From Rhodospirillaceae bacterium MC! (lineage in GTDB: Bacteria; Pseudomonadota; Alphaproteobacteria; MC1), in the NCBI GenBank assembly GCA_002632265.1, contig NQOV01000011.1, forward strand, positions 38,566-102,565: a DNA stretch of 64,000 nt, read 5' to 3'. Of this stretch, positions 101 through 63,866 are shown piece after piece. The position numbers and the translations under genes are program-made. The notes below the pieces were generated by a model. The model saw only the letters and a list, made by a program, of their open reading frames with translations, ran no database searches and was not told the origin of the DNA. The number at the start of each line of letters is the position of its first letter. The first letter of the stretch is position 1.

Positions 101-772
101 TTAACTACTAGAATGAATTCTGTGATATTCGTCAAATAGTTGGTAAATTTTAGTGGGATCTTTTAAGCCTGGTTTGACTTCTACGGATGAGGAGATGTCA
201 AAAGCGTAGATGTTTTTCCATAGGCTGTAGAATTCTTTTAGATTTTGTTGTGAGATTCCGCCTGCTATTAAGAGATTTAGTTTGTTTCTTGAGCAGATTA
301 TTAAAGCTTGATCTATTATGTTTCTTTCCACTCGGATTCCTGTACCGCCAAAATCTTTACTGGAGAATGCGTCGAGCAGGATACCTCGGCAGTTGGGGTC
401 GCCTTTGTATTCTTCTATTATGGCGATGTCGCTTAATTCTCTTACTCGGATTGCTTTAATGTAAGGCAGATTTAACGAATGGGCGAAGTTTTCGGTTTCT
501 TCGCCGTGCAGTTGGATCACATCTAGGTTAGATTTTTCGTATACTTCTTTGATTTCACTGATAGAGGCGTTAACAAAGACGCCAACTTTTTCTACATTTT
601 CGTATAATTCTTCTGATATTTCTAGGATCTGTTCAGGAGTTACGTATCTTTTGGATTCTTCGAAACAGATAAAGCCTATGTAATCTGCACCTGATGACGA
701 AACCACTCGAGCATCTTCTTTGTTAGTGATTCCACATATTTTTATTTTAGGGCGTTCTAATAGTGTATCCAT
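101..772 (-). CDS. trpF: phosphoribosylanthranilate isomerase
   Basis: 223-aa ORF with N-terminal KICGIT motif and PRAI-like sequence throughout. It is last in the trpE(G)-D-C-F order, and its start overlaps the trpC stop (TAATG). Confidence 0.9.
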   Translation of the reverse strand: MDTLLERPKIKICGITNKEDARVVSSSGADYIGFICFEESKRYVTPEQILEISEELYENVEKVGVFVNASISEIKEVYEKSNLDVIQLHGEETENFAHSLNLPYIKAIRVRELSDIAIIEEYKGDPNCRGILLDAFSSKDFGGTGIRVERNIIDQALIICSRNKLNLLIAGGISQQNLKEFYSLWKNIYAFDISSSVEVKPGLKDPTKIYQLFDEYHRIHSSS

Positions 773-7878: not shown

Positions 7879-8101
7879 CTCTCCCTATCATAGATCATGA
7901 TACAAGTATTTATAACATGTTAGACACTAGATTCTAGACACTAGATATTAAAATAAAACAAGATCTTAATGTGAAAAGACTATTCTCATTGAATAATCTG
8001 TAATATATAAAGAGCGAATCATGTGGGATAAGGATTCGTATGGGTGTTTATTTGTAATAGTTGAAAATAATCTTGTATTTCAAAGGTTTATAACATTGGG
8101 G

Positions 8102-10975: not shown

Positions 10976-11938
10976 ATGAAACAATATATTACAATAATAA
11001 CAATAGCATGCTCGTTCTTTATCACTAATGCGTATGCCAACAGCAAGCCACATCAGATATCTAATCAACAGCTAAAAGAACAATGCGGAATCGGTGCTTC
11101 GGATCTTAAAACTCAAGTGGCTTGTGTTAAATCCTTTGCCAATAAAGGACAAGAAAAAGCCCAACTAACTTTAGGCTTACTATATTTCACAGGGAGCGGA
11201 GTCGATAAAAATTTAACTATCGGCTTAAAATGGTGGCTCAAAGCAGGATCGTACGGAAATTCACAAACAGAATATAATATCGGTCTTTTACTATTTAAAG
11301 GATCGTACGGCATTAAAAAGGATTATAAACAAGCCTTTAAATGGTGGAAAAAGTCCGCAGATCAAAACTTCGCCCCAGCCCAAAACGCTCTAGGTACTCT
11401 TTATCAACAAGGATACGGCGTTAAAAAAGATCTTCGCCAATCAGCCATATACTACACAAAAGCCTCTCGCCAAAGATATCCCGAAGCTCAAAACAATATC
11501 GGCGTTATGTATATGAAAGGTATAGGCGTTAAACAAGATGATAAAATAGCCTTTAAAGTGCTATTACAATCGGCATATGGTGGCTTTAGTCTTGGAGCTT
11601 ATAATGTCGGTTATATGTATGCTAACGGTCGTGGTGTGGCTAAAAGCCTAATACGTGCCTATGCGTGGTGGATGGTTGCCGTTAATAGCGGAGCAAGAAA
11701 CCTAAAACAAGACGATTTCAACACTCTAGCAAAAAACTTCTCAAAAAATCAACTGGAACAAGCGAAAATGCTAGCAGGAACTATCGAACGCCAAATCCAA
11801 AAAAATCTTACTTCCAAAAATTATCAACAACAACAAAAACAAAGCCAAAAACAAATCCAACGCCAAAAGATCCAACAAAATAAACCAACAAAAGATCTAG
11901 ACATAAATTCCGACTATGAAGAACCATACGATGGTTAA
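10976..11938 (+). CDS. secreted Sel1-repeat (SLR/TPR-like) protein
   Basis: 320-aa ORF with a signal peptide and repeated A-x-GxxxAQxxLGxxYxxGxGVxKD units. The Q-rich C-terminal tail lies in an A/C-rich tract. Confidence 0.8.
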   Translation: MKQYITIITIACSFFITNAYANSKPHQISNQQLKEQCGIGASDLKTQVACVKSFANKGQEKAQLTLGLLYFTGSGVDKNLTIGLKWWLKAGSYGNSQTEYNIGLLLFKGSYGIKKDYKQAFKWWKKSADQNFAPAQNALGTLYQQGYGVKKDLRQSAIYYTKASRQRYPEAQNNIGVMYMKGIGVKQDDKIAFKVLLQSAYGGFSLGAYNVGYMYANGRGVAKSLIRAYAWWMVAVNSGARNLKQDDFNTLAKNFSKNQLEQAKMLAGTIERQIQKNLTSKNYQQQQKQSQKQIQRQKIQQNKPTKDLDINSDYEEPYDG

Positions 11939-11996: not shown

Positions 11997-12431
11997 ATGG
12001 ATATGGCCATAAAACAAGCACAAAAAGGATCAGCTCAAGAAGAAGTTCCCATAGGTGCAATCATTGTCCACAATCCAACAAATACAATCATAGCCCAAGC
12101 CCACAACACATGTAACCAAGAACAAAACCCCACAAAACACGCCGAAATATTAGCCATAGATCAAGCTTGTAAACATTTAAATAGCACATATCTAACAAAC
12201 TGTACAATATACGTAACCTTAGAACCATGTGCCATGTGTGCCATGGCTCTATCCTACACAAAAATACACAAAATAATATTCGGTGCTTACGATCCCAAAA
12301 GTGGCGGAATCGAACACGGTGCCCAAATCTACACCCACCCCCAAACCCACCACAAACCCGAAACCATCGGCGGTATCCAAGAACAAACCTGCAAAACCCT
12401 CCTAACCTCCTTCTTCCAATCCAAACGCTAA
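11997..12431 (+). CDS. tadA: tRNA adenosine(34) deaminase
   Basis: Deaminase zinc motifs HAE and PCAMC. The ORF opens at 11916 overlapping the upstream gene, and the ATG at 11997 gives a typical TadA N-terminus (start uncertain). Confidence 0.85.
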   Translation: MDMAIKQAQKGSAQEEVPIGAIIVHNPTNTIIAQAHNTCNQEQNPTKHAEILAIDQACKHLNSTYLTNCTIYVTLEPCAMCAMALSYTKIHKIIFGAYDPKSGGIEHGAQIYTHPQTHHKPETIGGIQEQTCKTLLTSFFQSKR

Positions 12432-12436
12432 CTTTA

Positions 12437-12504
12437 CCCCCTAACATGTGATCGAACAGACTTTCTACAACATCGCTATGTTCGAGCCGTCTCTCAAGAC
12501 AACC
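12437..12504 (-). repeat. core-family dispersed repeat, copy A (reverse orientation)
   Basis: The reverse complement reads GTCTTGAGAGACGGCTCGAACATAGCGATGTTGTAGAAAG...TTAGGGGG, aligning with copies B, C, D, F and I. Confidence 0.85.
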
Positions 12505-12691
12505 ATCCCAAAAAGGTCGACCAGTTTGATAAGATAGAAAGCGAATGTTTTTGTTTAGAATTCATTATATATGAAAACTATATAGTTAAATTAATCTTTA
12601 GATTATATGGGTAAAATATGAAGTCTGCAATTTTTTATCGGTTAAAAATCGCTATAAATTAAGTTCTTAGGAGAATTTATATGATATTAAC

Positions 12692-12849: not shown

Positions 12850-13587
12850 ATGGCTAAATATAACTATAAAGAAGGACAACAAAGAATCCAACAGATTTTA
12901 AACGCAACTGATCCAATCGAAGAAGATGACAGCATGTCTAAAGAGAGCGGGTCAACTTGTATTAATGGTCATTATTGTTGGATTAGTAGTGTTTTTGTTA
13001 ATGTGCGAGATTCTTCAAGTCTTTTTCAAAGTAAAGACGCTTTGCAACTAACTAAAATCATGAGAAGTTTCACATCGGAAGTAATAGAAATATTACGTGG
13101 AAATGAAAGTGATAATCTAGTTAAAGAGTTGGGCGTAAGAAATGACTGCGTATATGCAGTCTACTCAACACCTTCAAAATACGATATAGAAGAAGTAGTA
13201 GATAGAGTATTTTACGTAAATACCTACATAAAAATGCTTAACACATTACTTTATAGAAATAAAATCAACCATATATTATCTGTTGGCGTCGGCGTTGCTT
13301 CTGCTAGGGAATTAGTGGTAAACGCCGAAAGAAAAGGCAACGGCAAAACCAATGCCGTATGGATCGGCGGAACTGTAGAAGACGCTTTCTCCCTTTCAAA
13401 TATCGGCTCTAGAGATGATGTTTATCCCATAGTAATATCAAACAAAACATACTCAAATATCGGACACGATCACAAAAAACTCTTTAATAGCAACATAACA
13501 TCCACAGGAAAATTCTACACATCCAACGCCGTATTTGATGAATTTAAAGATTGGATAGATCGTGATATGAAAGTAGAAATAAAATAA
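12850..13587 (+). CDS. orphan protein with divergent class III nucleotidyl-cyclase-like sequence pattern
   Basis: 245-aa ORF. SSVFVNVRDSSSLF resembles FxDIxGFT, GVRNDCVYAVY resembles IGDxxMAVF, and SVGVGVASARELVV...AVWIGGTVEDAFSLSNIG resembles RIGIHxGxVxxG...GDxVNxAxRLE. Several catalytic positions are substituted. Homology is by eye only. Confidence 0.35.
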   Translation: MAKYNYKEGQQRIQQILNATDPIEEDDSMSKESGSTCINGHYCWISSVFVNVRDSSSLFQSKDALQLTKIMRSFTSEVIEILRGNESDNLVKELGVRNDCVYAVYSTPSKYDIEEVVDRVFYVNTYIKMLNTLLYRNKINHILSVGVGVASARELVVNAERKGNGKTNAVWIGGTVEDAFSLSNIGSRDDVYPIVISNKTYSNIGHDHKKLFNSNITSTGKFYTSNAVFDEFKDWIDRDMKVEIK

Positions 13588-13709
13588 AATCCCACCCCAT
13601 ATTAAGATTAAGATGTGAGAAGTTTTATATGTCCACATGTTCCTAGGATAAACATGTTAATAACCCTGTGAACAATTCTTATAACTCTCTATTTTTATTA
13701 ATATTTGTA

Positions 13710-13745
13710 ACCATTGATTCTTTTTGAATCAATGGTACTTTTATC
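13710..13745 (+). terminator. intrinsic terminator candidate
   Basis: ACCATTGATTC, TTTTT loop, GAATCAATGGT (11-bp perfect stem), followed by ACTTTTAT. Confidence 0.55.
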
Positions 13746-13754
13746 CCTTTCTCC

Positions 13755-13859
13755 TGCCTATCAGACTCCTAGCGTGAAGTCTTGACAGACGGTCCGAACA
13801 TAGCGATGTTGTAGAAAGTTTGTTTGATTCTACTTTAGGGGTGGGGGTGGGTAGGTGTG
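13755..13859 (+). repeat. core-family dispersed repeat, copy B (forward)
   Basis: A degenerate half unit, then GTCTTGACAGACGGTCCGAACATAGCGATGTTGTAGAAAGTTTG...TTTAGGGGTGGGGGTGGGTAGGTGTG. Confidence 0.85.
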
Positions 13860-14241
13860 TTTTATATTGGTATGGATAATGTTGATGTTGTATGTTATTG
13901 CCATTCCACATTATAGTAGAACATCACATCACAAAGAAAATATGATTGTGTTATATTGTGTTTATTTTTATAGTTGCTGGCCTAAGGTAGGCATGTAATT
14001 AGTATATCTAACGATACTTTAAATATGTTTTAATAAAGTGGCTATTTGTAGATATGACATTAGTTTGTTATAATACACCTAAAGTAACATTATATATACT
14101 TACATTATACATATTTTAGGCCTGTAAAAATGAATAGTAGCAATTATATATAATGATCTTTTCTATTTGTAGGAGAAGATATAATATGGATTGAGAGAAA
14201 TGAGCTAAGATATGTTTTAAATTAGCTCATTTAATGAGTTA

Positions 14242-14802: not shown

Positions 14803-15182
14803 TTATATACTCTCCAACTAAAAAATATTGTCATTTGGTTAATGATAACATTAAATATTTAATTTTGTTTTAATTTCTTATAAATAAAATTAGCTTTGTT
14901 AAAATCTCAATAAAACATTGATTTCCCCAATAACAACCCTAATTCAAAAAGAAATAATAGCACATTTTTACAAACATAGCAACCAATAAATATTTAATCT
15001 CTCCTTTTTTTTATCCCTCCTTAAAGAAATACGAAACACCAACCAATAATTCTTATAAACATACTTACTATATGCCCATTTAAGGCCTAAATAGTTGGCC
15101 TGTAATAGTAGGTTAAAGATGAATAAAACAAGAAATAAAAAAGAATATAAAACACATCAACACTATCCATACCGACATTATG

Positions 15183-15266
15183 CACATTTACCCATCCCCA
15201 CCCATAAAGTGGGATCGAATAAGCCTTGTGCAACACCGCTATGTTCGGATCGTCTATCAAGACAAC
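15183..15266 (-). repeat. core-family dispersed repeat, copy C (reverse)
   Basis: The reverse complement reads GTCTTGATAGACGATCCGAACATAGCGGTGTTGCACAAGG...CTTTATGGGTGGGGATGGGTAAATGTG. It begins 31 nt past the M16 peptidase stop. Confidence 0.85.
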
Positions 15267-15296
15267 CAAACTAAAAAGATATATAAAAGCTATGTT

Positions 15297-17394: not shown

Positions 17395-20300
17395 TTACAA
17401 GTGTTTTGATATTTCATCGCTTAAGCCTTCAATGAATTTCTTATCTGATTTGGGGGTTTTCACTAGATAGAAGTTATCAGAATCATACTCATTGGCAAGA
17501 TTTTTATATTGCATGCCTAATTCAACTAGATTTTCAATATTATCGCTAACAAAAGATATGGGAACAACAATCACAGGGGTTTTATCTTCGCATAGGGTTT
17601 TAATAACATCTTTAGTGGCAGGGGCTAGCCAATGCTTGCCTACTGCACTTTGATAACAGTTTTTATAATTTATCTTGTCATTAAATTCAGGGTGTAAAGA
17701 TAAAACCTTGTTCATTATGGCTTTTGTTGAGCCTATTACTTCTTTTTCATAAGGATCATGACGCTTTTCCACTAGCTTAATAGGTAAACTATGGGCAGAA
17801 AATAACACAACTGGATAGGTGCTTTTTTCTTCTAAACATTTGTTAATATTATGAATAACTTCATCAGCATAGAAGTTGACAAACTCTCGGTTTGTGTAGA
17901 AACTCTCAATACAATCGATTTTAACATCTTTAATTGATGAATCTGTTATTTGGCGGTTAAATTCATCAACAAAACTACCCGTAGTAGTGGTTGAATAATG
18001 TGGATAAAGTGGGAAAACAATCACATGATCAGGCTCAAACTCTGCCAATTCTTCAATCGCTTCTGCTATGGACGGGGTTAGATATCTCATGGCTGTAACA
18101 ACTTTGAATTCACAATCTTCATGTTTATTTATTAAAGCATCGTGGATGTTGGTTGCTTGCTCTAAGGTTTGTTCAATGTGTGGACTATGACCATCAACCT
18201 GCTCGTAAATCGCTTGGGATTTTTCCAGTCGCTTACCTGTGGTCGCAATTTTAGAAACGAACATTCTACCTAATTTGTTTAATCCTGTAACCGCCGAATC
18301 CGCAAACATCTCAAGCAAAAAGGCCTTAACATCATCCATACCCTTAGGCGAACCAAAACCACCTACAACAATGGCTATTTTTTTAGATTCTTGATCTATC
18401 GATACGTGCTTTTTCATTTCTTCCTCATTGTATTTTGCTTTCATAAATCCCGACCAAAGACTCGGATTTATACTCGCCTGCTGATAAACTTCCCCACCTT
18501 GAGACGGTTCTTCTATCTCGCTAGGCTGTGGGTCGGTAGATTGAATCTCGCTAGATTCTGGCTCGCTAGATTCTTGATTGTCTTTCTTGCTTAAACTGTC
18601 ATCCCCATTATTTAAAAGACTCTCAATCTCTTCCATAGCCACAACCTCAAACGGCTTTTCCTCTGGCTCTTCAGGTGCTGGCGGTTGTTCTGTTGGGATT
18701 TCATCAGCTGATGTTGGGTCATCGTCGGCTAGAGCCATTTCTGGGGCGTCTTCTAGGGGTGGCATTTCATCCATAGGGATTTCGTCGGCTGGGGTTGGGT
18801 CATCAGCTAGGGCGATTTCTGGGTCATCTTCTAGAGCTGGCATTTCTTCCATAGGGATTTCTTCGGATGATGTTGGGTCATCGGCTAGGGCCATTTCTGG
18901 GGTGTCTTCTAGGGGTGGCATTTCGTCCATAGGGATTTCGTCAGCTGGTGCTATATCATCAGTTAGGGCGATTTCTGGGGCGTCTTCTAGAATTGGCGAT
19001 TCATCCACAGGGATTTCGTCAGCTGGTGTTGGGTCATCAGCTAGGGCCATTTCTGGGGCGTCTTCTAGAGCTGGCATTTCATCCATAGGGATTTCGTCGG
19101 CTGGTGTTAGGTCATCAGCTAGAGCGATTTCTGATTCGTCTTCTAGAGCTGGCGATTCGTCCATTGGGGTTTCGTCAGCTGGTGCTATGTCATCAGTTAG
19201 GGCGATTTCTGGAGCGTCTTCTAGGATTGGCGATTCGTCCATTGGGATTTCGTCGGCTGGTGTTGGGTCATCAGCTAGAGCGATTTCTGGAGCGTCTTCT
19301 AGGGTTGGAACTTCTTCCATTATCATATCATCAGACGCAACACTTTTATTTAAAACCATTTCTGATTCTTCTTCTATTTCTGGCATTTCGTCCATTGGGG
19401 TTTCGTCGGCTGGTGTTAGGTCATCAGCTAGAGCGATTTCTGATTCGTCTTCTAGAGCTGGCGATTCGTCCATTGGGGTTTCATCGGATGATGTTAGGTC
19501 GTCGGCTAGGGCGATTTCTGATTCGTCTTCGGAGAATGGGGGGTCTTCGGGTAGGTATAGTTTCATGGTGTTTGATGAAACGGATTTTTGGAATTCTAGG
19601 GCTTCTTCTGTGATTGGGGCGTTGTGTTTTTCGATTCTTTCTTGTAGTTTTTGAATTATGTTTTCGCTAACTGTTGAGGTTTCATCATCTGATGTTATGT
19701 CATCATCGAGAGCAATTTCTTGGTCATCTTCTAGGATTGGAGATTCGTCCATAGGAATTTCGTCGGATGATGTTAGGTCGTCATCGAGAGACATTTCTGG
19801 GGCGTCTTCTAGAGCTGGCATTTCTTCCATAGGAATTTCATCGGCTGATGTTAGGTCATCATCGAGAGCGATTTCTGGATCGTCTTCTAGGATTGGGGAT
19901 TCGTCCATAGGAATTTCGTCGGCTGGTGTTAGGTCATCATCGAGAGCGATTTCTGGATCGTCTTCTAGGATTGGCATTTCATCCATAGGGATTTCGTCAG
20001 CTGGTGTTAGATCCTCATCGAGAGCGATTTCTGATTCGTCTTCTAGAGCTGGCATTTCTTCCATAGGGATTTCGTCAGCTGGTGTTAGGTCGTCATCGAG
20101 AGCCATTTCTGATTCATCTTCTAGAGCTGGCATTTCATCCATAGGGATTTCGTCGGCTGGTGTTAGGTCATCGTCGAGAGACATTTCTGGGGCGTCTTCT
20201 AGAGCTGGCATTTCATCCATAGGGATTTCGTCGGTTGGTGTTAGGTCATCGGCTAGGGCGATTTCTGGGGTGTCTTCTAGAGCTGGCATTTCATCCATAG

Positions 20301-22998
20301 GGATTTCTTCGTCTGATGTTAGGTCATCATCGAGAGACATTTCTGGGGCGTCTTCTAGAGCTGGCATTTCATCCATAGGGATTTCTTCGTCTGATGTTAG
20401 GTCATCATCGAGAGACATTTCTGGGGCGTCTTCTAGGGGTGGCATTTCATCCATAGGGATTTCTTCGGATAATGTTAGGTCATCGTCGAGAGCGATTTCT
20501 GATTCGTCTTCTAGAGCTGGCATTTCGTCCATAGGGATTTCTTCGGCTGGTGTTGGGTCATCGTCGAGAGCGATTTCTGATTCGTCTTCTAGAGCTGGCA
20601 TTTCATCCATTGGGATTTCGTCGGCTGGGGTTAGGTCATCGTCGAGAGACATTTCTGGGGCGTCTTCTAGGGGTGGCATTTCATCCATTGGGATTTCGTC
20701 GGCTGATGTTAGGTCGTCATCGAGAGACATTTCTGGGGCGTCTTCTAGAGCTGGCATTTCATCCATAGGGGTTTCGTCGGCTGATGTTGGGTCATCATCA
20801 AGAGCGATTTCTTGATCATCTTCTAGAGCTGGCGATTCGTCCATAGGGATTTCGTCGGTTGGTGTTGGGTCATCATCGAGAGACATTTCTGAAGCGTCTT
20901 CTAGAGCTGGCATTTCGTCCATAGAGATTTCTTCGGCTGATGTTAGGTCGTCATCGAGAACCATTTCTGATTCGTCTTCTAGAGCTGGCATTTCATCCAT
21001 TGGGATTTCGTCGGCTGGTGTTAGGTCATCGTCGAGAGACATTTCTTGGTCATCTTCTAGGATTGGAGATTCATCCATTGGGATTTCGTCGGGTGGGGTT
21101 AGGTTTTCGATGTCGGTTGCTAGTTCGTCTGCGGTTGGGGGTGTTGAGTCTAGGATTTGGTTTTGTAGGGCTTGGATTGTGTCGTCGCTTGCGAATGGGG
21201 TTAAGCTTTCGATTTCGTTGGCTTGGGCGTCGTCGCTTAATGGGATCGAATCTTCTAGAATTTTATTTTGTAAGGCTTGGATTGTGTCATCGCTTACGAA
21301 TGGAGTTAGGTTCTCTATTTCGTTGGCTTGTTCGTATTCGCTTAATAGAGCTGAATCTTCTAGGATTTGGTTTTGTAAAGATTGGATTGTGTCATCGCTT
21401 ACGAATGGGGTTAAGCTTTCGATTTCGTTGGCTTGGGCGTCGTCGCTTAATGGGATAGAATCTTCTAGAATTTTATTTTGTAGGGCTTGGATTGTGTCAT
21501 CGCTTACGAATGGGGTTAGGTTTTCGATTTCATTGGCTTGTTCGTATTCGCTTAATGGAGCTGAATCTTCTAGGATTTGGTTTTGTAAAGATTGGATTAC
21601 ATCATCGCTTACGAATGGGGTTAGGTTTTCGATTTCATTGGCTTGTTCGTATTCGCTTAATGGAGCTGAATCTTCTAGAATTTGGTTTTGTAAAGATTGG
21701 ATTACATCGTCGCTTACGAATGGAGTTAGGTTTTCGATTTCGTTGGCTTGTTCGTATTCGCTTAATGGAGCTGAATCTTCTAGGATTTGGTTTTGTAAGG
21801 CTTGGATTGTGTCATCGCTTACGAATGGAGTTAGGTTCTCTATTTCGCTGGCTTGTTCGTATTCGCTTAATGGGGCTGAATCTTCTAGAATTTGGTTTTG
21901 TAAAGATTGGATTACATCATCGCTTACGAATGGAGTTAGGTTCTCTATTTCGCTGGCTTGTTCGTATTCACTTAATGGGGCTGAATCTTCTAGGATTTGG
22001 TTTTGTAAGGCTTGGATTGTGTCATCGCTTACGAATGGAGTTAGGTTTTCGATTTCGTTGGCTTGTTCGTATTCGCTTAATGGGGCTGAATCTTCTAGGA
22101 TTTGGTTTTGTAAAGATTGGATTACATCATCGCTTACGAATGGAGTTAGGTTCTCTATTTCGCTGGCTTGTTCGTATTCGCTTAATGGGGCTGAATCTTC
22201 TAGGATTTGGTTTTGTAAAGATTGGATTACATCATCGCTTACGAATGGAGTTAGGTTCTCTATTTCGTTGGCTTGTTCGTATTCGCTTAATGGAGTGTCG
22301 CCTTGGGTTGGGGTGGTGGAGTATACTATGTTTTTGAATTTATCTGCAAGGTTGTTTTCGGCGGTGGTTTTTTGTTGGGCGTGTTGTTTTACCGCCTGAT
22401 CTAAAAGGTGCATGTGTTTATCGGCAAGAGTGCTTTCTTTACCTGTGTGGGCGATATCGTGAACATTGGTTTCAAGATAAGCTTTGATTTTTGATATTAT
22501 GGTATCTATTTTTTTATCGGAAATTGGTTTTTCTTCGTAAACTATTTCTACTGGCGGTTTAGCTGGTTGGGGCTGTGGAGCAGGTGCAGGATCTGCAGAT
22601 TGTGCAGATTGTTTTAATTCTTCGGCTTGTAATTTACGTGCTTGTAGTTCGGCTTTTACCAGGGCTATTTCCGCTTGATAACGTCTATCACGGACGATAC
22701 CGTCGTGAACTTTTTGTGATAAGGCTGGGTTGCTATCGATAATATGGGTAACTTCTTCTATGGTTTCCTTATGAAGTAATTTTTTTTCTTCTTCTTCGAT
22801 TTTGCCTGCTAGGGGTTTGTAGGCGTCGTAATAATTGTTGATGTTAACATCAGAGGCCTCCAAAGCCTCTTCTAGGACTGGAGTATCTACGTTAAGATCG
22901 TAAAAATGGACTCCTGCTTCAATATTTTCAGGAGCTTTTTCTTTAGGTTCTACTTCTAAATCATAGAAATCATCAATATTTACTTTTTTATCAGTCAT
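17395..22998 (-). CDS. hemH: giant acidic tandem-repeat protein fused in frame to ferrochelatase
   Basis: 1867-aa uninterrupted ORF. The C-terminal ~340 aa is ferrochelatase-like (KKIAIVVGGFGSPKG...VKAFL, SAHSLP). An internal ATG at 18417-18415 preceded by GAGGAAGAA could yield free HemH. Confidence 0.75.
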   Translation of the reverse strand: MTDKKVNIDDFYDLEVEPKEKAPENIEAGVHFYDLNVDTPVLEEALEASDVNINNYYDAYKPLAGKIEEEEKKLLHKETIEEVTHIIDSNPALSQKVHDGIVRDRRYQAEIALVKAELQARKLQAEELKQSAQSADPAPAPQPQPAKPPVEIVYEEKPISDKKIDTIISKIKAYLETNVHDIAHTGKESTLADKHMHLLDQAVKQHAQQKTTAENNLADKFKNIVYSTTPTQGDTPLSEYEQANEIENLTPFVSDDVIQSLQNQILEDSAPLSEYEQASEIENLTPFVSDDVIQSLQNQILEDSAPLSEYEQANEIENLTPFVSDDTIQALQNQILEDSAPLSEYEQASEIENLTPFVSDDVIQSLQNQILEDSAPLSEYEQASEIENLTPFVSDDTIQALQNQILEDSAPLSEYEQANEIENLTPFVSDDVIQSLQNQILEDSAPLSEYEQANEIENLTPFVSDDVIQSLQNQILEDSAPLSEYEQANEIENLTPFVSDDTIQALQNKILEDSIPLSDDAQANEIESLTPFVSDDTIQSLQNQILEDSALLSEYEQANEIENLTPFVSDDTIQALQNKILEDSIPLSDDAQANEIESLTPFASDDTIQALQNQILDSTPPTADELATDIENLTPPDEIPMDESPILEDDQEMSLDDDLTPADEIPMDEMPALEDESEMVLDDDLTSAEEISMDEMPALEDASEMSLDDDPTPTDEIPMDESPALEDDQEIALDDDPTSADETPMDEMPALEDAPEMSLDDDLTSADEIPMDEMPPLEDAPEMSLDDDLTPADEIPMDEMPALEDESEIALDDDPTPAEEIPMDEMPALEDESEIALDDDLTLSEEIPMDEMPPLEDAPEMSLDDDLTSDEEIPMDEMPALEDAPEMSLDDDLTSDEEIPMDEMPALEDTPEIALADDLTPTDEIPMDEMPALEDAPEMSLDDDLTPADEIPMDEMPALEDESEMALDDDLTPADEIPMEEMPALEDESEIALDEDLTPADEIPMDEMPILEDDPEIALDDDLTPADEIPMDESPILEDDPEIALDDDLTSADEIPMEEMPALEDAPEMSLDDDLTSSDEIPMDESPILEDDQEIALDDDITSDDETSTVSENIIQKLQERIEKHNAPITEEALEFQKSVSSNTMKLYLPEDPPFSEDESEIALADDLTSSDETPMDESPALEDESEIALADDLTPADETPMDEMPEIEEESEMVLNKSVASDDMIMEEVPTLEDAPEIALADDPTPADEIPMDESPILEDAPEIALTDDIAPADETPMDESPALEDESEIALADDLTPADEIPMDEMPALEDAPEMALADDPTPADEIPVDESPILEDAPEIALTDDIAPADEIPMDEMPPLEDTPEMALADDPTSSEEIPMEEMPALEDDPEIALADDPTPADEIPMDEMPPLEDAPEMALADDDPTSADEIPTEQPPAPEEPEEKPFEVVAMEEIESLLNNGDDSLSKKDNQESSEPESSEIQSTDPQPSEIEEPSQGGEVYQQASINPSLWSGFMKAKYNEEEMKKHVSIDQESKKIAIVVGGFGSPKGMDDVKAFLLEMFADSAVTGLNKLGRMFVSKIATTGKRLEKSQAIYEQVDGHSPHIEQTLEQATNIHDALINKHEDCEFKVVTAMRYLTPSIAEAIEELAEFEPDHVIVFPLYPHYSTTTTGSFVDEFNRQITDSSIKDVKIDCIESFYTNREFVNFYADEVIHNINKCLEEKSTYPVVLFSAHSLPIKLVEKRHDPYEKEVIGSTKAIMNKVLSLHPEFNDKINYKNCYQSAVGKHWLAPATKDVIKTLCEDKTPVIVVPISFVSDNIENLVELGMQYKNLANEYDSDNFYLVKTPKSDKKFIEGLSDEISKHL
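18690..21095 (-). repeat. 78-bp (26-aa) coding tandem repeat, roughly 29 units, one unique interruption near 19515-19700
   Basis: Period measured directly (GGCATTTC.TCCATAGGG at 18761 and 18839). The unit encodes DDDLTPADEIPMDEMPALEDAPEMSL. Confidence 0.9.
21150..22293 (-). repeat. 102-bp (34-aa) coding tandem repeat, about 11 units
   Basis: The unit encodes PLSEYEQANEIENLTPFVSDDVIQSLQNQILEDSA. Two alternating variants (VIQSL and TIQAL) are visible. Confidence 0.9.
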
Positions 22999-26344: not shown

Positions 26345-26640
26345 CCGTTATGGTTTTCCTTTGTGGTTGCCGTTATAAGTTTACCGTTGTAGATTTCCGT
26401 GATAGCTTTCCGTGATAGCTTTCCGTTATAGATTTCCGTGATAGCTTTCCGTTATAGATTTCCGTTGTAGCTTTCCTTTATAGTTTTCCGTTATAGATTT
26501 CCGTTGTAGTTTTACGTTGTAGATTTCCGTTGTAGTTTTACGTTGTAGATTTCCGTTATAGCTTTCCGTTATAGCTTTCCGTTATAAGTTTACTGTTATG
26601 GTTTTCCGTTGTGGTTTATCTTTATGGTTACTGTTCTATC
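26345..26640. repeat. 13-bp tandem repeat array (CCGTTATAGMTTT), about 23 units
   Basis: Unit starts counted at 13-nt spacing from 26397 to 26592, with 12/14-nt irregular units at both edges. Confidence 0.9.
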
Positions 26641-26740: not shown

Positions 26741-27062
26741 GAGAGAAATGTAGTGAGATGTGCTTATAAACGGTATGCCGTGTACTTAATACCTACACTA
26801 GTACCGCTTACAAGTGCAGATAGCCCACCTATCACAATCCTGTAGGATTGGGAGAAATGGGCTAAGGTGTGCCTTAACTTAGGGCGACGTGTACTCACGT
26901 CTACATAAGCCCTAAAGTAAGGTACAGATAACCCACCTATCACAATCCGCAAGCTTTAAGATTGGGAGAAATGGGATAAGGTGTGCCTTACCTTAGGGCG
27001 ACGTGTACTCACGTCTACATAAGCCCTAAGGTAAGGTGCAGATTAGCCCATTTATCCCAATC
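26741..27062. repeat. three tandem ~100-bp long imperfect palindromes
   Basis: Units at 26741-26839 (diverged), 26845-26947 and 26960-27062. Arms GATTGGGAGAAATGGG...CCTTAGGGC and GCCCTAAGG...CCCATTTATCCCAATC flank a GACGTGTACTCACGTC centre. The last base abuts the surA stop codon. Confidence 0.9.
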
Positions 27063-30746: not shown

Positions 30747-30841
30747 TCTCTATAATATAATCAGACATTATTACACAAAATACAACAAAATACAACAATA
30801 AAGTTTATTGTTGTATTTTTTATTGGTTTATACTGCTGGTT

Positions 30842-30956
30842 CTCTTTTGTTTGGTCTGATTGTCTTGACAGACGGTCATACTCTTTGGGTTTGTCTTGAC
30901 ATACGGTCGTACTCTATTGGCTTTGACTCTTTGGCTTTGATTGTCTATCAAGACAA
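30842..30956. repeat. core-family repeats, short subtype (three cores)
   Basis: GTCTTGACAGACGGTCATACTCTTTGGG, then GTCTTGACATACGGTCGTACTCTATTGG, then the palindromic TTGTCTATCAAGACAA. Confidence 0.8.
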
Positions 30957-31041
30957 ATAAGCAGAGAGTAAAAAAATGTTATTCCAAAAATGTTAATAAG
31001 TATGATATAATCTAGGGATAAAGTTAGAAATAAGAAAAACA

Positions 31042-31050
31042 TGTGGATAA
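31042..31050 (-). promoter_or_regulatory. perfect DnaA box (TTATCCACA on the complement)
   Basis: TGTGGATAA read directly. It is followed after one base by TATTCACA, an inverted 7/9 box. Confidence 0.4.
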
Positions 31051-31305
31051 GTATTCACATGAGATCATAAAAAGTATAAAGTTATTAACAACTAAAATCA
31101 AAATTTTTAGAATAGTTACAAAAGGTTAAAAGTCTTTAATCACTTACAAACACCGCAACAAAAAACAACAAAAAATAATATATTAAAATATATTATTTTA
31201 TCTTTAGCAACATTTTATCTTTGTAAAACATCTTTAATTCATATATACTCATATAATCATTTTACATTCAAATAACCACTTTTTTTTAAGGATTAACAAA
31301 ATATT

Positions 31306-35418: not shown

Positions 35419-35423
35419 TGTTT

Positions 35424-35513
35424 ATCTTGTTTTAACAGACAGACGCTCCGAGCATAGCGATGTTGCACAAAGTTTCTTCGATCCCACTTTAGGGATGTGG
35501 ATAGGTAAGTGTG
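35424..35513 (+). repeat. core-family dispersed repeat, copy D (forward)
   Basis: TTTTAACAGACAGACGCTCCGAGCATAGCGATGTTGCACAAAGTTTCTTCGATCCCACTTTAGGGATGTGGATAGGTAAGTGTG; starts 6 nt after the J-protein stop. Confidence 0.85.
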
Positions 35514-36183
35514 TATTTTTTATTTTGTGGTATTGTAATTGGTTGGATTCATATGAATCATAAAATATGATTTTATAAAAAAATAAATGCTAAGAAGTCA
35601 TTTTTACTATTTTATTGTATACAATTGTAGATTCTTGAAATTGGAGATATCTTATAATTTTTTTTAATTTGATATTTTCATAATATTATCGTTATAAGAT
35701 TCGCAAAAAAAATATTTTAAATTTTAAAAGACAAATTTTTTAGCAAAAGAAAATTATTAAATTCGCACTTAGAATAAAAATAAAAAATTACTCCGTTAAA
35801 TTATTTTTAAAAATCAAAATCAAAAACGCCTTAATAACAAAATTAAAAAAATCTATTTGTAAGTCAAATAAATTTTCTCATATTATAATCGTATAAATAA
35901 TAAAATTAAAAATCTCCAACCAAAATCAAAAAAAATTTTTATCATTAAAACCGCTCCACCAATAAAAATTAAAAAACACCAATAATTAAAATCGTACCAA
36001 CAACAAATAAAAAATATTTATCCCTACTCCCCCTACAAAAATAAAATTTTTCTTTTTTTAATTACCCACATAACAACCATCCCACAACTTTATCCGACAA
36101 TAAAATAAATCCCAGCAACCAGTATAAAATATTACACCACACTAAATCAAAATCCTTAACAAACATTCGCATTTTTTTTATTA

Positions 36184-36430
36184 TCTTATCAGACGGTCGC
36201 TCTCTTTGGTTTGGTTGTTGCCCTGCTCGAGCGGAGGTCTTGACAGACGGTCGCCCTGCTCGAGCGGAGGTCTTGACAGACGGTCGCTCTACTCGAGCGT
36301 AGGTCTTAACAGACGGTTGCCCTACTCGGGCGTAGGTCTTAACAGACGGTTGCCCTGCTCGGGCGGAGGTCTTGACAGACGGTCCAAACATAGCATGTTT
36401 GATCGCATGTTAGAGTTAGGATTTAGGCTG
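36184..36430 (+). repeat. tandem amplification of the core-family repeat (33-bp unit, four copies, plus flanking partial and full copies)
   Basis: GTCTTGACAGACGGTCGCCCTGCTCGAGCGGAG and variants at 36237, 36270, 36303 and 36336. A terminal long-form copy starts at 36369. Confidence 0.92.
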
Positions 36431-36458
36431 TTTTTTTATAATATATGGTTGTTTTGTA

Positions 36459-36653
36459 TGGTATTTATGAAGATTTTTAGAATGAAAAATAAGATGTACA
36501 TAAAAAAATATATACATCTTTATTGTTATTTTATATGGTATTTATAAAGATTTTTAGAATGAGAAATAAGATGTACATAAAAAATACATATATCTTTATT
36601 GTTATTTTATATGGTATTTATGAAGATTTTTAGAATGAGAAATACATATACCT
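36459..36653 (+). repeat. ~76-bp tandem repeat, 2.5 units
   Basis: ATGGTATTTATGAAGATTTTTAGAATGA.AAATAAGATGTACATAAAAAA... repeats at 36459, 36536 and 36612. A related sequence follows copy G at 42660-42730. Confidence 0.85.
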
Positions 36654-36680
36654 TAAGCTCATAACTACATCAAAATTATA

Positions 36681-36775
36681 CATACTTACTTATCTACATC
36701 CCTAATGTGATCGAAGAAGCTTTGTGCAACATCGCTATGGCCGTCTGTTATAGACAAGGGAACCAAAGAGAGTGA
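36681..36775 (-). repeat. core-family dispersed repeat, copy F (reverse)
   Basis: The reverse complement reads CTCTCTTTGGTTCCCTTGTCTATAACAGACGGCCATAGCGATGTTGCACAAAGCTTCTTCGATCACATTAGGGATGTAGATAAG. It lies just past the mnmG stop. Confidence 0.85.
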
Positions 36776-36799
36776 ATGTTTATTAAGGTAATGTAAGAG

Positions 36800-39314: not shown

Positions 39315-39330
39315 TGATTCACGTGAAACA
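39315..39330. promoter_or_regulatory. parS: parS centromere-like site (15/16 match)
   Basis: TGATTCACGTGAAACA versus consensus TGTTTCACGTGAAACA. Confidence 0.8.
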
Positions 39331-39577: not shown

Positions 39578-39593
39578 TGTTTCACGTGAAACA
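39578..39593. promoter_or_regulatory. parS: parS centromere-like site (perfect palindrome)
   Basis: TGTTTCACGTGAAACA read directly. Confidence 0.88.
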
Positions 39594-39723: not shown

Positions 39724-39739
39724 TGTTTCACGTGAAACA
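39724..39739. promoter_or_regulatory. parS: parS centromere-like site (perfect palindrome)
   Basis: TGTTTCACGTGAAACA read directly. Confidence 0.88.
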
Positions 39740-42614: not shown

Positions 42615-42730
42615 GGTTCTTGCCTTGATCGGACGATCTAAGCATGGCATATTTAAGATAGGATTTAGGTTGTTTTGTATGATATCTATAGGAATTTTAG
42701 GATGTAAAAGTTAAGATCCATATAAAAAAT
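42615..42730 (+). repeat. core-family dispersed repeat, copy G (forward, diverged core, long tail)
   Basis: GGTTCTTGCCTTGATCGGACGATCTAAGCATGGCAT...GGATTTAGGTTGTTTTGTATG... aligns with 36369-36510; starts at the base after the parB stop. Confidence 0.7.
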
Positions 42731-42837: not shown

Positions 42838-44040
42838 ATGAAAAGAATCACAATCACAGCTTTAATATTATCCATATGCACACTGCCAAGTATAACCCTA
42901 GCTCATACGGATATAACACATATTGATAAAACACACATTAAAGATCAAGCCATAGAATCATGCTTAAAGGAGAAAACTCCAAATATATGTATGCACAATC
43001 TAGCCATAAAAAATAATATCCAAGCTCAAGCAGATTTGGGAATTATGTATTATCATGTTAAAGGTAAGGAAAAACAAAATTATAAACAGGCTTTATATTG
43101 GTTCAAAAAATCAGCACTAAAAGGGAATGCTCAAGCTCAAAATAATCTGGGAATTATGTATTATTATGGCTATGGAATAAAACAAGATTATAAAAAAGCC
43201 TTATATTGGTTTACAAAATCCCTAAAACAAAACAATTCAGACGCTCAAAATAATATGGGAGAAATGTATTATTTTGGCAATAATGCAGTAAAACAAAATT
43301 ATAAAACCTCTTTAGATTGGTATAGAAAATCAGCTAAGCAAAATAATTCGGATGCTCAATATCACATAGCTATAATGTATGATAACGGTAACGGAGTAAA
43401 ACAAGATGAAAAGATCGCTCTGGATTGGTATTTAAAATCTGCAAAAAATGGCAACGCCAACGCTCAATTTCAAATGGGTATTATCTATGATAATGGTAAC
43501 GGAGTAAAACAAGATTACGTCAAAGCCGCATCTTGGTATTTAAAATCAGCAAAACAAAACAACGCAAAAGCTCAAAATAATCTTGCGATCATCTATAAAA
43601 ACGGCAAAGGCAGAATAAAAAAAGATATGCTCTTTGCTTTGCAAATGTTTATGCAATCGGCAAAGCTCGGCAATATAACCGCTCAAATTAATTTAGCCAA
43701 TGAAGAATACAACGGTATAGATATGGAAATAAATTATAAACAAGCCTTATATTGGTATCTAAAAGCCGCTCAAAAAGGCAACGCAGACGCTCAAGCAAAC
43801 GTAGGATATATGTACAAAACCGCAAGAGGAACAAAACTCAATTATAAAAAAGCTTTCTATTGGTATCTAAAATCTGCAAAACAAGGCAATAAATATGCCG
43901 AATTCCACCTAGCCACCCTATACGATTACGGTAACGGCGTAAAACCCAACAAAAAACAAGCCTTATACTGGTACAAAAAATCCGCCAAGCAAGGTATAAA
44001 AGACGCTCAAGAGAATATATCTCTCTTAAATATAAACTAA
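42838..44040 (+). CDS. secreted Sel1-repeat protein (about 9 SLR units)
   Basis: 400-aa ORF with a signal peptide and repeated AQxNLGxMYxxGxGVKQDYxKAxxWYxKSAxQGN units. Confidence 0.85.
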   Translation: MKRITITALILSICTLPSITLAHTDITHIDKTHIKDQAIESCLKEKTPNICMHNLAIKNNIQAQADLGIMYYHVKGKEKQNYKQALYWFKKSALKGNAQAQNNLGIMYYYGYGIKQDYKKALYWFTKSLKQNNSDAQNNMGEMYYFGNNAVKQNYKTSLDWYRKSAKQNNSDAQYHIAIMYDNGNGVKQDEKIALDWYLKSAKNGNANAQFQMGIIYDNGNGVKQDYVKAASWYLKSAKQNNAKAQNNLAIIYKNGKGRIKKDMLFALQMFMQSAKLGNITAQINLANEEYNGIDMEINYKQALYWYLKAAQKGNADAQANVGYMYKTARGTKLNYKKAFYWYLKSAKQGNKYAEFHLATLYDYGNGVKPNKKQALYWYKKSAKQGIKDAQENISLLNIN

Positions 44041-44051
44041 TTTTCGCCAAT

Positions 44052-44135
44052 GTCTTATCAGAGCGTCTGAACAAAGCTTGTTCTATTTCATTCTATTCTA
44101 TTTCATTCCGTGTGGGGTATGTGGATAGCTGTGTG
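44052..44135 (+). repeat. core-family dispersed repeat, copy H (forward, diverged)
   Basis: GTCTTATCAGAGCGTCTGAACAAAGCTTG...GTGTGGGGTATGTGGATAGCTGTGTG. Confidence 0.65.
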
Positions 44136-44224
44136 TTTTACATCCTAAGCCTAAGTTAACAACTTAACACAGGTAATATATTTCACAAAGAGAGCAAGAG
44201 AGAAAAAAATAATATTTTTTACTC

Positions 44225-47679: not shown

Positions 47680-47770
47680 TTAACAGGCAGTCGTTCAAAT
47701 AGAGCGACTGCCTGTTAAGGTATTATATCCAAAGAGTTATTATATCCAAAGAGTGCGAGTGTCTGTCAAG
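47680..47770. repeat. core-family repeats between convergent ruvB and gyrB (hairpin pair plus short-subtype reverse copy)
   Basis: TTAACAGGCAGTCG (47680-47693) pairs perfectly with CGACTGCCTGTTAA (47705-47718). CCAAAGAGTGCGAGTGTCTGTCAAG (47746-47770) is the reverse complement of CTTGACAGACACTCGCACTCTTTGG. Confidence 0.8.
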
Positions 47771-47806
47771 ATATCATGTTAAAGAGAGACAAATACATAA
47801 GCAAGA

Positions 47807-57149: not shown

Positions 57150-57195
57150 CTCTTTAGTTGGTTTGTCCCTTGACAGACAGTCGCACGCTTTGGGC
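57150..57195 (+). repeat. core-family repeat, short subtype, copy J (forward)
   Basis: CTCTTTAGTTGGTTTGTCCCTTGACAGACAGTCGCACGCTTTGGG, 13 nt after the ligA stop. Confidence 0.8.
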
Positions 57196-57581
57196 AGAAC
57201 TCTTGATATACAGGCCAACTATTTAGGCCTGTAATAGTGAGATATGCAACGTAAAAACAATAGCTTAATGTAAAATAGGCATTTTGATTGATGGCCAACA
57301 TTATGAGTTAAAAATACAGCCTTTATAAAGGTTAGTATTGTATGTATATACACATAATATCCAGTACATTAAAAAACATCATAAATAGATGTTTATGATG
57401 TTTTTGTAAGCTAAAGTATATCTTGACACATAATTATTTTCAAGCATATAAAAACCAACTGGCATACAAGGTATATACGTATACTAATATACTTACACAT
57501 GGACATTTTATAAAGATAATGTCTGTTAAGTTAGAGTATATTATTAATTTTACAGATTGTTATAATTATGTTTAGTTTGAA

Positions 57582-62373: not shown

Positions 62374-62500
62374 ATATATACTTTTAATATATAAAACCTA
62401 TTTAAAGTATATATAAAAGTAGGCCGAGAATAATAAAACACAATAGACTCTACACATAAAAACTTTTGCATATGAAAACTCTTGCATATGAAAATATGAA

Positions 62501-62604
62501 CATGACCCAAATAACTTGGGATCGAATAAGTTTTGTGCAACATCGCTATGTTTGGCCCGTCTGGCAAGACTTCCGCCCGAATAGGGCAACTGTCTGTTAA
62601 GACG
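62501..62604 (-). repeat. core-family dispersed repeat, copy I (reverse; one 33-bp unit plus a full copy)
   Basis: The reverse complement reads CGTCTTAACAGACAGTTGCCCTATTCGGGCGGAAGTCTTGCCAGACGGGCCAAACATAGCGATGTTGCACAAAACTTATTCGATCCC...; starts 19 nt past the tdk stop. Confidence 0.85.
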
Positions 62605-62622
62605 CTAAATCAATCAATCAAG

Positions 62623-63270: not shown

Positions 63271-63413
63271 AAGATTAAGAGAAAAATCGTAAGATGTACC
63301 TTGGGCGACGTGTACTCACGTCTACATAAGTTCTAGTTTAAAGTGCAGATTAGTTCTACTCACGTCTACATAAGCTCTAGTTTAAGGTGCAGATTAGTCC
63401 ATTTATCACAATC
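63271..63413. repeat. long-palindrome element (same family as 26741-27062) with duplicated right arm
   Basis: GATTAAGAGAAAAATCG...GGGCGACGTGTACTCACGTCTACATAAG...GTGCAGATTAG, then a repeat of CTACTCACGTCTACATAAGCTCTAG...GCAGATTAGTCCATTTATCACAATC. The last base abuts the dut stop codon. Confidence 0.85.
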
Positions 63414-63866
63414 CTATTTTGTGCCTGTACTGCCGAATCCTTGATCATTTCTAAGGGTTTCATTTAGGATGTTTACTTGTTTTATGTGGGCTTGGCTCAC
63501 TGGGGCGATGACCATTTGGGCGATGCGTTCGCCACGGTTTATGGTAAAATCTTGAGAGCCTAAATTAATGAGTATGATTTTGATTTCGCCACGATAATCG
63601 GCGTCGATTGTGCCTGGGGAATTGAGAACGGTAATGCCGTGCTTAAAGGCAAGGCCGGAGCGTGGGCGAATCTGTGCTTCGAATCCTTTGGGGATGGCTA
63701 CAGATAAACCAGTGGGAACGATGATTCGCTCCATGGGTTTGAGAAGAATCGGCTCGCTTTGAAGATTGGCGGATCTTAAATCCATACCTGCACTTAATTC
63801 CGTTTCATATTTGGGTAATTCCAAACCTATGGCATGTTCTAGGGTTTTGATTTCTAAAGTTAGCAT
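63414..63866 (-). CDS. dut: dUTP diphosphatase
   Basis: 150-aa ORF with dUTPase motifs ([41 protein letters not shown]). Confidence 0.92.

Follow-up and report, generated by a model that had tools for sequence, protein, structure and literature searches.

A mosaic intergenic repeat found mainly in sense orientation behind stop codons in an alphaproteobacterial genome

Introduction

The 64,000-nucleotide (nt) stretch of contig NQOV01000011.1 of Rhodospirillaceae bacterium MC! that was analyzed in this work (hereafter the window) carries at positions 36,184 to 36,430 a tandemly amplified sequence whose 16-nt core, GTCTTGACAGACGGTC, recurs elsewhere in the same stretch. This locus raises the question of whether the copies form one family and, if so, of what kind it is and what it may do beside the genes that it adjoins. 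The family is real, non-coding, modular and confined to intergenic DNA, and most of its loci lie in sense orientation just behind a stop codon. Comparison with described repeats makes a lineage-specific mosaic interspersed repeat of the SPRITE/BOX/REP general kind its best reading. Regarding its role, we tentatively favor, at a probability of roughly 0.45, an orientation-dependent action in 3' untranslated regions (UTRs), by termination and/or 3'-end protection, with a conserved block of the repeat as recognition site.

Results

Recovery of the repeat family

The core was matched 16 times in the window with at most three mismatches, compared with 0.14 matches expected by chance from shuffled sequences, and none of 100 shuffles attained 16 matches. 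These matches group into 13 loci, all of them intergenic. A 30-nt pattern taken from the long form of the repeat gave five matches against 0.00 expected. Six copies were aligned (alignment A1) and turned into an nhmmer profile, which found six full long forms of about 110 nt each (E-values from 1e-24 to 1e-30). Its lesser matches were a truncated variant with E = 1e-8 at 36352-36417 and, at 44068-44134, a weak tail match. The short form was searched with a separate profile of its own, which recovered five units, located at 30851-30919 (two units), 36169-36209, 47746-47786 (reverse strand) and 57153-57194, with E-values from 1e-7 to 1e-9, and no significant match beyond the known loci in the window. 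Neither profile gave a significant match inside any open reading frame (ORF) of the window.

An earlier note on this DNA had proposed one dispersed family with at least 12 loci, and the core count together with the two profiles supports that proposal with 13. Its loci at 42615-42730 and 44052-44135 are genuine though degenerate, and a degenerate trace that it had placed at 7879-8050 was recovered by neither profile.

Placement relative to genes

Placement was evaluated against one tRNA and the 50 ORFs treated as protein genes, 51 features in all, with 19% of the window being intergenic. At 9 of the 13 loci the first core lies 11-40 nt past a stop codon, on the same strand as the gene. Random placement and orientation within intergenic DNA produced a mean of 1.1 such loci and a maximum of 7 in 100,000 permutations (P < 1e-5), in agreement with the earlier description of an element that reads forward just behind stop codons. 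The distances from stop codon to first core were as follows:

Sel1, 11 nt
DnaJ-domain gene, 14 nt
parB, 17 nt
ruvB, 19 nt
tdk, 19 nt
ligA, 29 nt
M16, 33 nt
gyrB, 34 nt
mnmG, 40 nt

Ten loci abut a stop codon, nine in sense and one in antisense orientation, and each of the five convergent spacers is occupied by the repeat. In the DnaJ/mnmG and ruvB/gyrB spacers each gene has a copy of its own, which points away from it. Between ruvB and gyrB the orientation of the repeat flips with gene strand within 100 nt, which argues that it tracks transcription and not the replication fork; on the same ground, a replication-coupled orientation such as the strand bias of IS200/IS605-like elements was rejected.

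A second, unrelated repeat family was found at 26817-27062 and 63298-63419. Its unit is a palindrome about 111 nt long, the 44-nt arms of which show 86% complementarity. Two tandem copies start 0 nt past the surA stop, and a related 44-nt piece, repeated twice, starts 0 nt past the dut stop; the similarity extends through both stop codons. The occurrence of two families placed in sense at stop codons suggests that 3' ends could be a general landing or safe zone in this genome.

The same placement might arise from a purely selfish, non-autonomous mobile element with no host function, inserted at, or tolerated next to, terminator hairpins and gene 3' ends, its orientation being set by the insertion mechanism or by selection against interfering antisense copies. 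Such an element would fit the unrelated loci, the mosaic and truncated forms and the multi-unit clusters, the start of the copy with a core at 13779 right behind the T-run of a canonical terminator, and the surA and dut stops where the second palindromic family also begins. Pneumococcal repeats are likewise enriched between convergent genes, which has been read as insertion tolerance (PMC3049150). Tolerance alone, however, does not explain the 9:1 sense bias, and the Pfam matches of the 50 window ORFs included no transposase, RAYT, Y1-transposase, recombinase or reverse transcriptase. Taking these points with those on element ends and conservation given below, we hold the purely selfish explanation to be less likely than a 3'-end role, of which it is the main rival.

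Modular anatomy and copies

Copies start with a left module, the T-rich piece CTCTTTGG-TTTGGTT (also given as (A)TCTCTTTGG-TTTGGTT), followed by the 16-nt core. After the core comes one of three continuations: a short end, a spacer plus another core, or a long tail. The short continuation is the T-rich end GYACTCTTTGG, and the short profile detected the core-plus-GYACTCTTTGG arrangement, as previously proposed, in its five units. In the spacer continuation, the 17-nt GCCCTGCTCGAGCGGAG together with a core makes a 33-nt unit, five of which lie at 36220-36384 and one at 62571-62603. The long tail (about 75 nt) includes a conserved 23-nt block and reads CGAACATAGCGATGTTGYASAAAG, nTTnTTCGATCCCA, CTTTAGGG and then a G/T-rich stretch ending in GTAAGTGTG; CATAGCGATGTTG is a stretch within the conserved block. 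The order that the earlier note had given for the long form, namely core, CGAACATAGCGATGTTGYASAAAG, TTCGATCMCA and TTAGGG with a G/T-rich tail, was seen in six copies. The tandem array locus and the parB copy have a second tail type in common. At two loci, ruvB (17 bp, 47680-47718) and ligA (7 bp), the core has given rise to palindromic versions. Outside the array locus, which is treated separately, the copies are:

12409..12519, reverse strand: long form, antisense, directly after the tadA stop (12431); nhmmer E = 1.3e-24
12507-12545, reverse strand: degenerate extra core and short tail, 5' of the preceding long form; short profile weak, E = 0.5
13761..13872, forward strand: long form with a perfect core at 13779-13794; nhmmer E = 5.8e-26
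15170..15281, reverse strand: long form after the M16 peptidase gene, best-folding copy (fold z = -4.0); nhmmer E = 1.2e-30
30851..30965, forward strand: three-unit short-form cluster, cores at 30862, 30893 and about 30943; short profile E = 8e-9 and 8e-7; Tandem Repeats Finder (TRF) period 31
35421..35521, forward strand: long form after the DnaJ-domain gene, tail hairpin followed by UUUUUUAU; nhmmer E = 4e-28
36668..36776, reverse strand: long form after mnmG, facing the 35421 copy across the convergent spacer; nhmmer E = 3.5e-24
42615..42730, forward strand: degenerate copy with core-like sequence, block-like hairpin and second tail type, starting at the base after the parB stop
44041..44147, forward strand: degenerate long-like copy after the Sel1-repeat gene, core with 4 mismatches; nhmmer E = 0.02 over the tail
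47680..47718, forward strand: inverted doublet of the 3' part of the core after ruvB, forming a 17-bp hairpin; terminator-like scan 17 pairs, 8 of them G-C; spacer fold z = -8.1
47696..47786, reverse strand: short form after gyrB, core at 47757-47772, duplicated ACTCTTTGG tail; short profile E = 7e-9 and 0.0017
57153..57237, forward strand: short form after ligA, then a second degenerate core; short profile E = 1.1e-8
62476..62612, reverse strand: composite after tdk, made of core, one 17-nt spacer, core and long form; nhmmer E = 2.2e-24 at 62476-62587; short profile E = 0.007

The copy previously given as 47680-47770 is real, but it comprises two oppositely oriented units, the inverted-core hairpin of ruvB and the short form of gyrB, the tail of which contains a 17-nt unit present twice at 47721-47754 by TRF. 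At ligA, the second degenerate core pairs with an inverted partner over 7 bp (ACAGGCC/GGCCTGT). The lptF/hemE cluster contains a 31-nt unit twice at 30860-30925, its third unit (30939-30965) is partly palindromic, and it folded with z = -3.2 on the forward strand against -1.8 on the reverse strand. The tdk composite is 89% identical to the array units, the tail of the parB copy is 81% similar to 36447-36507, and a T-A to A-T swap in the 44041 copy leaves the block hairpin described below intact. The hypothetical gene at 12850-13587 has a strong terminator hairpin of its own at 13709-13735 (+122..149 past its stop, dG -14.4) followed by a T-run, and the 13761 long form begins directly after that T-run.

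None of the six long copies is spanned by terminal inverted repeats of 9 nt or more, as had been noted before for the element as a whole; that statement does not extend to the ruvB copy, which is a 17-bp inverted core doublet, or to the partly palindromic unit at 30939-30965. No flanking direct repeats or target duplications were found at the long copies, again as first described, the fuzzy element ends leaving room for duplications of 2-4 nt. [quoted passage not shown] There was no reading frame conserved between copies on either strand and no match in a protein search for an open frame through one long form, consistent with the earlier remark that no ORF is associated with the element.

Uneven conservation

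Pairwise identity among the long copies is only 52-77%, and it is distributed very unevenly. Mean pairwise column identities were:

Left piece, 0.43
Core, 0.54
23-nt block, 0.87
Next 20 nt, 0.74
G/T-rich tail, 0.53

The stretch after the core had already been singled out as highly conserved, and the value for the block agrees with this. Within it, 12 of the 13 positions of CATAGCGNTGTTG are invariant in all six long copies, the eighth position being G for A in one copy. A block so sharply conserved would not be left by uniform neutral decay, from which we infer that something reads it; the pattern points to a selected site. It is also a feature that the selfish explanation does not account for, given that the rest of the element is about 55-75% identical.

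If the block and the core together signalled the 3' end, in a sequence-specific manner, to a trans-acting factor dedicated to them, the repeat might be a portable factor-dependent terminator or 3'-processing cassette spread behind housekeeping genes. The G-rich non-template tail might then aid by polymerase pausing, in a manner different from the structure-only REP/SPRITE model. We regard this specific version as improbable.

RNA folding and the proposed 3'-end role

Three forward-strand hairpins were recognized. The first is the core mini-hairpin GTCT-TGAC-AGAC, whose 4-bp GTCT/AGAC dyad matches the mini-palindrome reported earlier, and which G.U pairs extend to 8-12 pairs in about four copies. 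The second, AACAT-AGCG-ATGTT, lies in the conserved block. It survives in eight of nine copies, among which four G.T wobbles on the forward strand and a single T-A to A-T swap were noted, the loop being 3 or 4 nt long. The third is a long, imperfect, G.U-rich tail hairpin (UGCACA...UGUGYA), which reached -21.4 (z = -3.7) in the 15170 copy and -14.0 (z = -1.9) in the 35421 copy and was marginal in the others. The best terminator-like feature downstream of the DnaJ-domain gene is the tail hairpin of the 35421 copy (dG -13.2) followed by UUUUUUAU. The terminator-like scan also picked out, in one case, a short-form core hairpin with ACUCUUUGG after it. Canonical AT-rich terminators were present behind genes without the element, for example the GGGtGRT gene, tRNA-Leu and hyp186.

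Several results weigh against an RNA-level action in 3' UTRs. Five of the six long copies fold no better than shuffled sequences (z from -0.7 to +0.8), so that in whole-molecule folds only the 15170 copy stands out, and RNAalifold of the long forms gave just 10 pairs, with an energy of -1.8 kcal/mol. Only about 4 of 19 cores have the extended stem, the block hairpin contributes no more than about -2 kcal/mol, and the four forward-strand wobbles against one reverse-type mismatch are not a significant difference. Pairing in alignment A1 favors the proposed forward-strand structure (76% of cells, compared with 33-44% when partners are slid), but one of the copies had served to derive that structure, which biases the control. 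Covariation analysis of the same alignment with a shuffle control showed no excess, the independent copies being too few, and linked changes between array units are explicable by their shared duplication history. The U-run after the tail hairpin is clear only in the 35421 copy, weak in the 36668 and 13761 copies and absent from the 15170 copy. The survey moreover covers a 64-kb window of one genome, and four loci depart from the 3'-UTR pattern (one antisense, one in a divergent spacer and two far from stops):

Core at 12500, reverse strand: antisense, just after tadA
Core at 13779, forward strand: 191 nt after the gene, but immediately past the strong terminator of that gene
Core at 30862, forward strand: divergent lptF/hemE spacer
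Array locus at 36183: 764 nt from the nearest gene

The sense orientation described earlier as usual thus applies to nine loci and fails at the 12409-12519 copy, which is antisense to its adjoining gene. Altogether, the evidence for an RNA-level role of the repeat is suggestive and not strong.

The tandem array locus and the promoter alternative

The locus that prompted this analysis comprises the following parts:

36169..36219, forward strand: leading short-form unit with a degenerate core ATCTTATCAGACGGTC at 36183-36198, then GCTCTCTTTGG and TTTGGTT; short profile E = 3e-7
36220..36384, forward strand: tandem array of five 33-nt units (17-nt spacer GCCCTGCTCGAGCGGAG plus 16-nt core); TRF period 33, 5.0 copies, 91% matches
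36385..36430, forward strand: variant right end with a shortened block hairpin CAAACAT-AGC-ATGTTTG and the second tail type; nhmmer 36352-36417, E = 1.2e-8

The second tail runs on into a 76-nt tandem repeat (2.6 copies, 36444-36644) that is related to 42668-42729 behind parB. Tandem amplification of the module at 36184-36430, as first noticed, corresponds to the TRF array; the count of four 33-bp units given at that time has to be raised to five, with a sixth, degenerate core at 36183. The array folded with z = -2.9 on the forward and -4.6 on the reverse strand. Slippage or unequal exchange involving the core-plus-spacer module may have produced it, in the manner of boxB, and it would need no function of its own. 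A CRISPR was rejected for 36220-36384, since its 17-nt "spacers" are all one sequence and the 33-nt unit itself repeats at 91%, and no Cas domain was present among the Pfam matches in the window.

Open frames of 109 and 113 aa cross the array at 36062-36391 (reverse strand) and 36206-36547 (forward strand), and neither had a homologue among 5.8 billion proteins; as 33 nt equals 11 codons, we consider them repeat artefacts. Another spacer, at 26345-26610, holds a separate tandem array in which the 13-nt unit CCGTTATAGTTTT is repeated 20 times.

At 764 nt from the nearest gene, the array is too distant for a 3' UTR, which would suit independent small-RNA genes or outward promoters using the TTGACA of the core. 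This sequence, correctly pointed out in the earlier note, is a perfect -35 hexamer; a promoter-like site (TTAACA, 17 nt, TATTAT) lies at 36156-36184 just upstream of the array, and the 23-nt block could serve as a seed region. Yet the core is not promoter-like, in that no -10-like hexamer follows TTGACA at 16-18 nt in the long, short or array forms, the promoter scan contained no core-based site, and promoter-like sites were not enriched in general (79 found against 73 expected). Promoters in the convergent spacers would, in addition, fire antisense into the facing gene, and the block had neither a complementary target in the window nor an Rfam match. We therefore judge small-RNA genes or promoters very improbable.

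Origin-proximal landmarks and the DNA-site alternative

Three canonical parS sites (TGTTTCACGTGAAACA) lie at 39315-39330, 39578-39593 and 39724-39739 in the spacer upstream of rsmG-parA-parB, with 1, 0 and 0 mismatches (0.4 expected by chance). In the divergent lptF/hemE spacer (30747-31305, 559 nt), the three-unit repeat cluster is accompanied by AT-rich stretches and, at 31042, by a perfect DnaA box, TGTGGATAA. Caulobacter and Rickettsia have a replication origin next to hemE, and this spacer may hold one as well. Three repeat tails agree with the DnaA box in 8 of 9 positions, but matches of this quality are frequent throughout the window (42 counted, 20 expected).

With mnmG, rsmG, parA, parB, three parS sites and hemE with its DnaA box, the window looks origin-proximal, a setting in which the repeat could be a double-stranded DNA site for a regulator or nucleoid-associated protein and the five-unit array an iteron- or centromere-like cluster. 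The primary sequence is strongly conserved and the structure weak, the 33-nt period is near three helical turns, and AACAT-N4-ATGTT has dyad symmetry, all of which would suit such a site. Nothing about it, however, would tie it to the strand of the adjacent gene or to a position 11-40 nt past a stop codon. The canonical parS sites already present argue that the core is not the centromere, and degenerate copies keep the block stem while its spacing changes from 4 to 3 nt, which fits a hairpin and not a dimer site. We give the DNA-site model little chance; both it and the small-RNA or promoter model fit the orientation rule poorly.

Genomic context and searches for copies elsewhere

The window has a G+C content of about 35%. 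Its Pfam-assigned genes are ordinary chromosomal ones, comprising trpFCD, trpEG, an M16 peptidase, mlaEF, surA, lptFG, hemE, mnmG and rsmG-parA-parB, along with a class II DAHP synthase, ruvAB, gyrB, bamD, recN, ligA, uppP, tdk and dut. The closest outside proteins were 67% identical for GyrB, from Rhodospirillales-like alphaproteobacteria, and 46% for ParB; the weakness of these best matches indicates an alphaproteobacterial host that branches deeply and lacks a close relative in the collections. The contig with the best ParB match has 55% G+C and no copy of the repeat.

The repeat had no match in Rfam at gathering or E-value thresholds, and a full-text search for its motifs returned only an unrelated paper and its preprint, in line with the earlier statement that the element resembles no named family. 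A 19-nt pattern run against 185,579 species genomes gave 16 singletons in unrelated taxa, equal to the estimated chance number, and these fit the profile only over the approximately 20 nt used for selecting them. Two 30-nt patterns had 0 matches in metagenome contigs. In viral contigs the block had 0 matches and the core eight single matches, each on a different contig, and blastn found no repeat copy in plasmids. Judged by these searches, the repeat is lineage-restricted and absent from the collections searched.

Other repetitive ORFs were recorded in the window. In a 1867-aa ORF at 17395-22998 (reverse strand), about 1540 residues of tandem repeats (78/156/234-nt and 105/315-nt periods; about 45% G+C, the window as a whole having about 35%) share a reading frame with a ferrochelatase domain at the C terminus; this is a fused repeat protein or else an open frame that reads on into hemH. 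The Sel1-repeat proteins encoded at 10976-11938 and 42838-44040 are paralogues at the DNA level (59% identity over 364 nt), the latter gene being internally repetitive with a 108-nt period.

Comparison with known repeats

Pneumococcal SPRITE elements are enriched close to the 3' ends of coding sequences (CDS) and between convergent genes, and have been proposed to be co-opted terminators (PMC3049150). The present family resembles them as a small non-coding interspersed repeat near CDS 3' ends and in convergent spacers, with no recognised mobilising gene and a proposed terminator role; 9 of 13 loci at most 40 nt from a co-oriented stop and 5 of 5 convergent spacers are SPRITE-type placement. 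The two differ in that SPRITE has an 18-bp duplex and a long U-rich tract, whereas the stems described here are short, imperfect and G.U-rich, with a U-run in some copies. There is also no sequence relation, and the SPRITE host is a firmicute, ours an alphaproteobacterium.

BOX elements, also pneumococcal, consist of boxA, a variable number of boxB modules and boxC, the boxB module being tandemly variable (PMC3049150). Mosaic modules and an internal unit of variable tandem number (the 33-nt unit, five times at 36220-36384 and once at 62571-62603) are shared with the present family. In BOX, however, the boxA and boxC ends pair in a stable stem and resemble the inverted repeats of insertion sequences, while our family lacks such ends and folds poorly, and the BOX description consulted shows no comparably strict sense orientation behind stops. 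Since the repeat was found in no other genome, homology to boxA, boxB or boxC is very unlikely, the comparison with BOX being one of description. The repeat thus combines BOX-like modularity with SPRITE-like placement.

REP elements, known from enterobacteria, increase mRNA stability when they lie in 3' UTRs, cause transcription to terminate and, if within 15 nt of the stop, stall ribosomes; Br-REP1 and Br-REP2 of Bradyrhizobium are examples in alphaproteobacterial 3' UTRs (PMC5082802). Common to REPs, the mosaic BIMEs, Br-REPs and our repeat are an extragenic position in 3' UTRs or convergent spacers and, as we suppose for our repeat, transcription with the upstream gene; the Br-REPs also show rapid turnover of such families among alphaproteobacteria. 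REPs are imperfect palindromes, G+C-rich and 20-40 nt long, that often alternate in orientation and are mobilised by RAYT transposases, whereas here the core dyad has 4 bp (GTCT/AGAC), the element start lacks GTAG, the copies are single and in sense, and no RAYT was seen in the window. A REP/REPIN assignment was rejected because the family lacks a stable palindrome, the ruvB copy alone being a REPIN-like inverted doublet.

Rickettsia palindromic elements (RPE) are palindromic and often inserted in frame inside protein genes. Our family is, like them, dispersed, about 100-150 nt long and hosted by an alphaproteobacterium with an AT-rich genome, but, compared by description, an RPE was rejected because the family is not palindromic and all significant profile matches are intergenic. 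Integron attC sites, group II intron remnants, tRNA-derived elements and Tus/Ter-like sites were dropped, as their defining features are absent, and ARAGORN and Rfam detected nothing at the repeat copies.

Discussion

The 3'-end role that we favor would operate as follows. Copies would be transcribed within the 3' UTR of the upstream gene, where the forward-strand hairpins (the core hairpin, AACAT-AGCG-ATGTT and the long G.U-rich tail hairpin, followed in some copies by a U-run) would act in an orientation-dependent manner as a terminator and/or as a barrier to 3'-to-5' exonucleases, with the conserved block probably being read by a factor. Owing to this dependence on orientation, sense copies near stop codons are proposed to be those that persist.

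Some consequences concern annotation and typing. The repeat family is a marker for the lineage, the open frames through the 33-nt array are a likely source of false "hypothetical protein" calls, and the array itself is a likely site of copy-number variation that could be useful for strain typing.

If the repeat were only selfish DNA, it would show, together with the surA/dut family, that stop-codon-proximal DNA is a preferred home for repeats in this genome. If the proposed 3'-end function is true, a repeat family would define the transcript ends of core genes such as gyrB, ligA, ruvB, parB and mnmG in a lineage without a sequenced close relative, and the 23-nt block would provide a handle for finding its factor.

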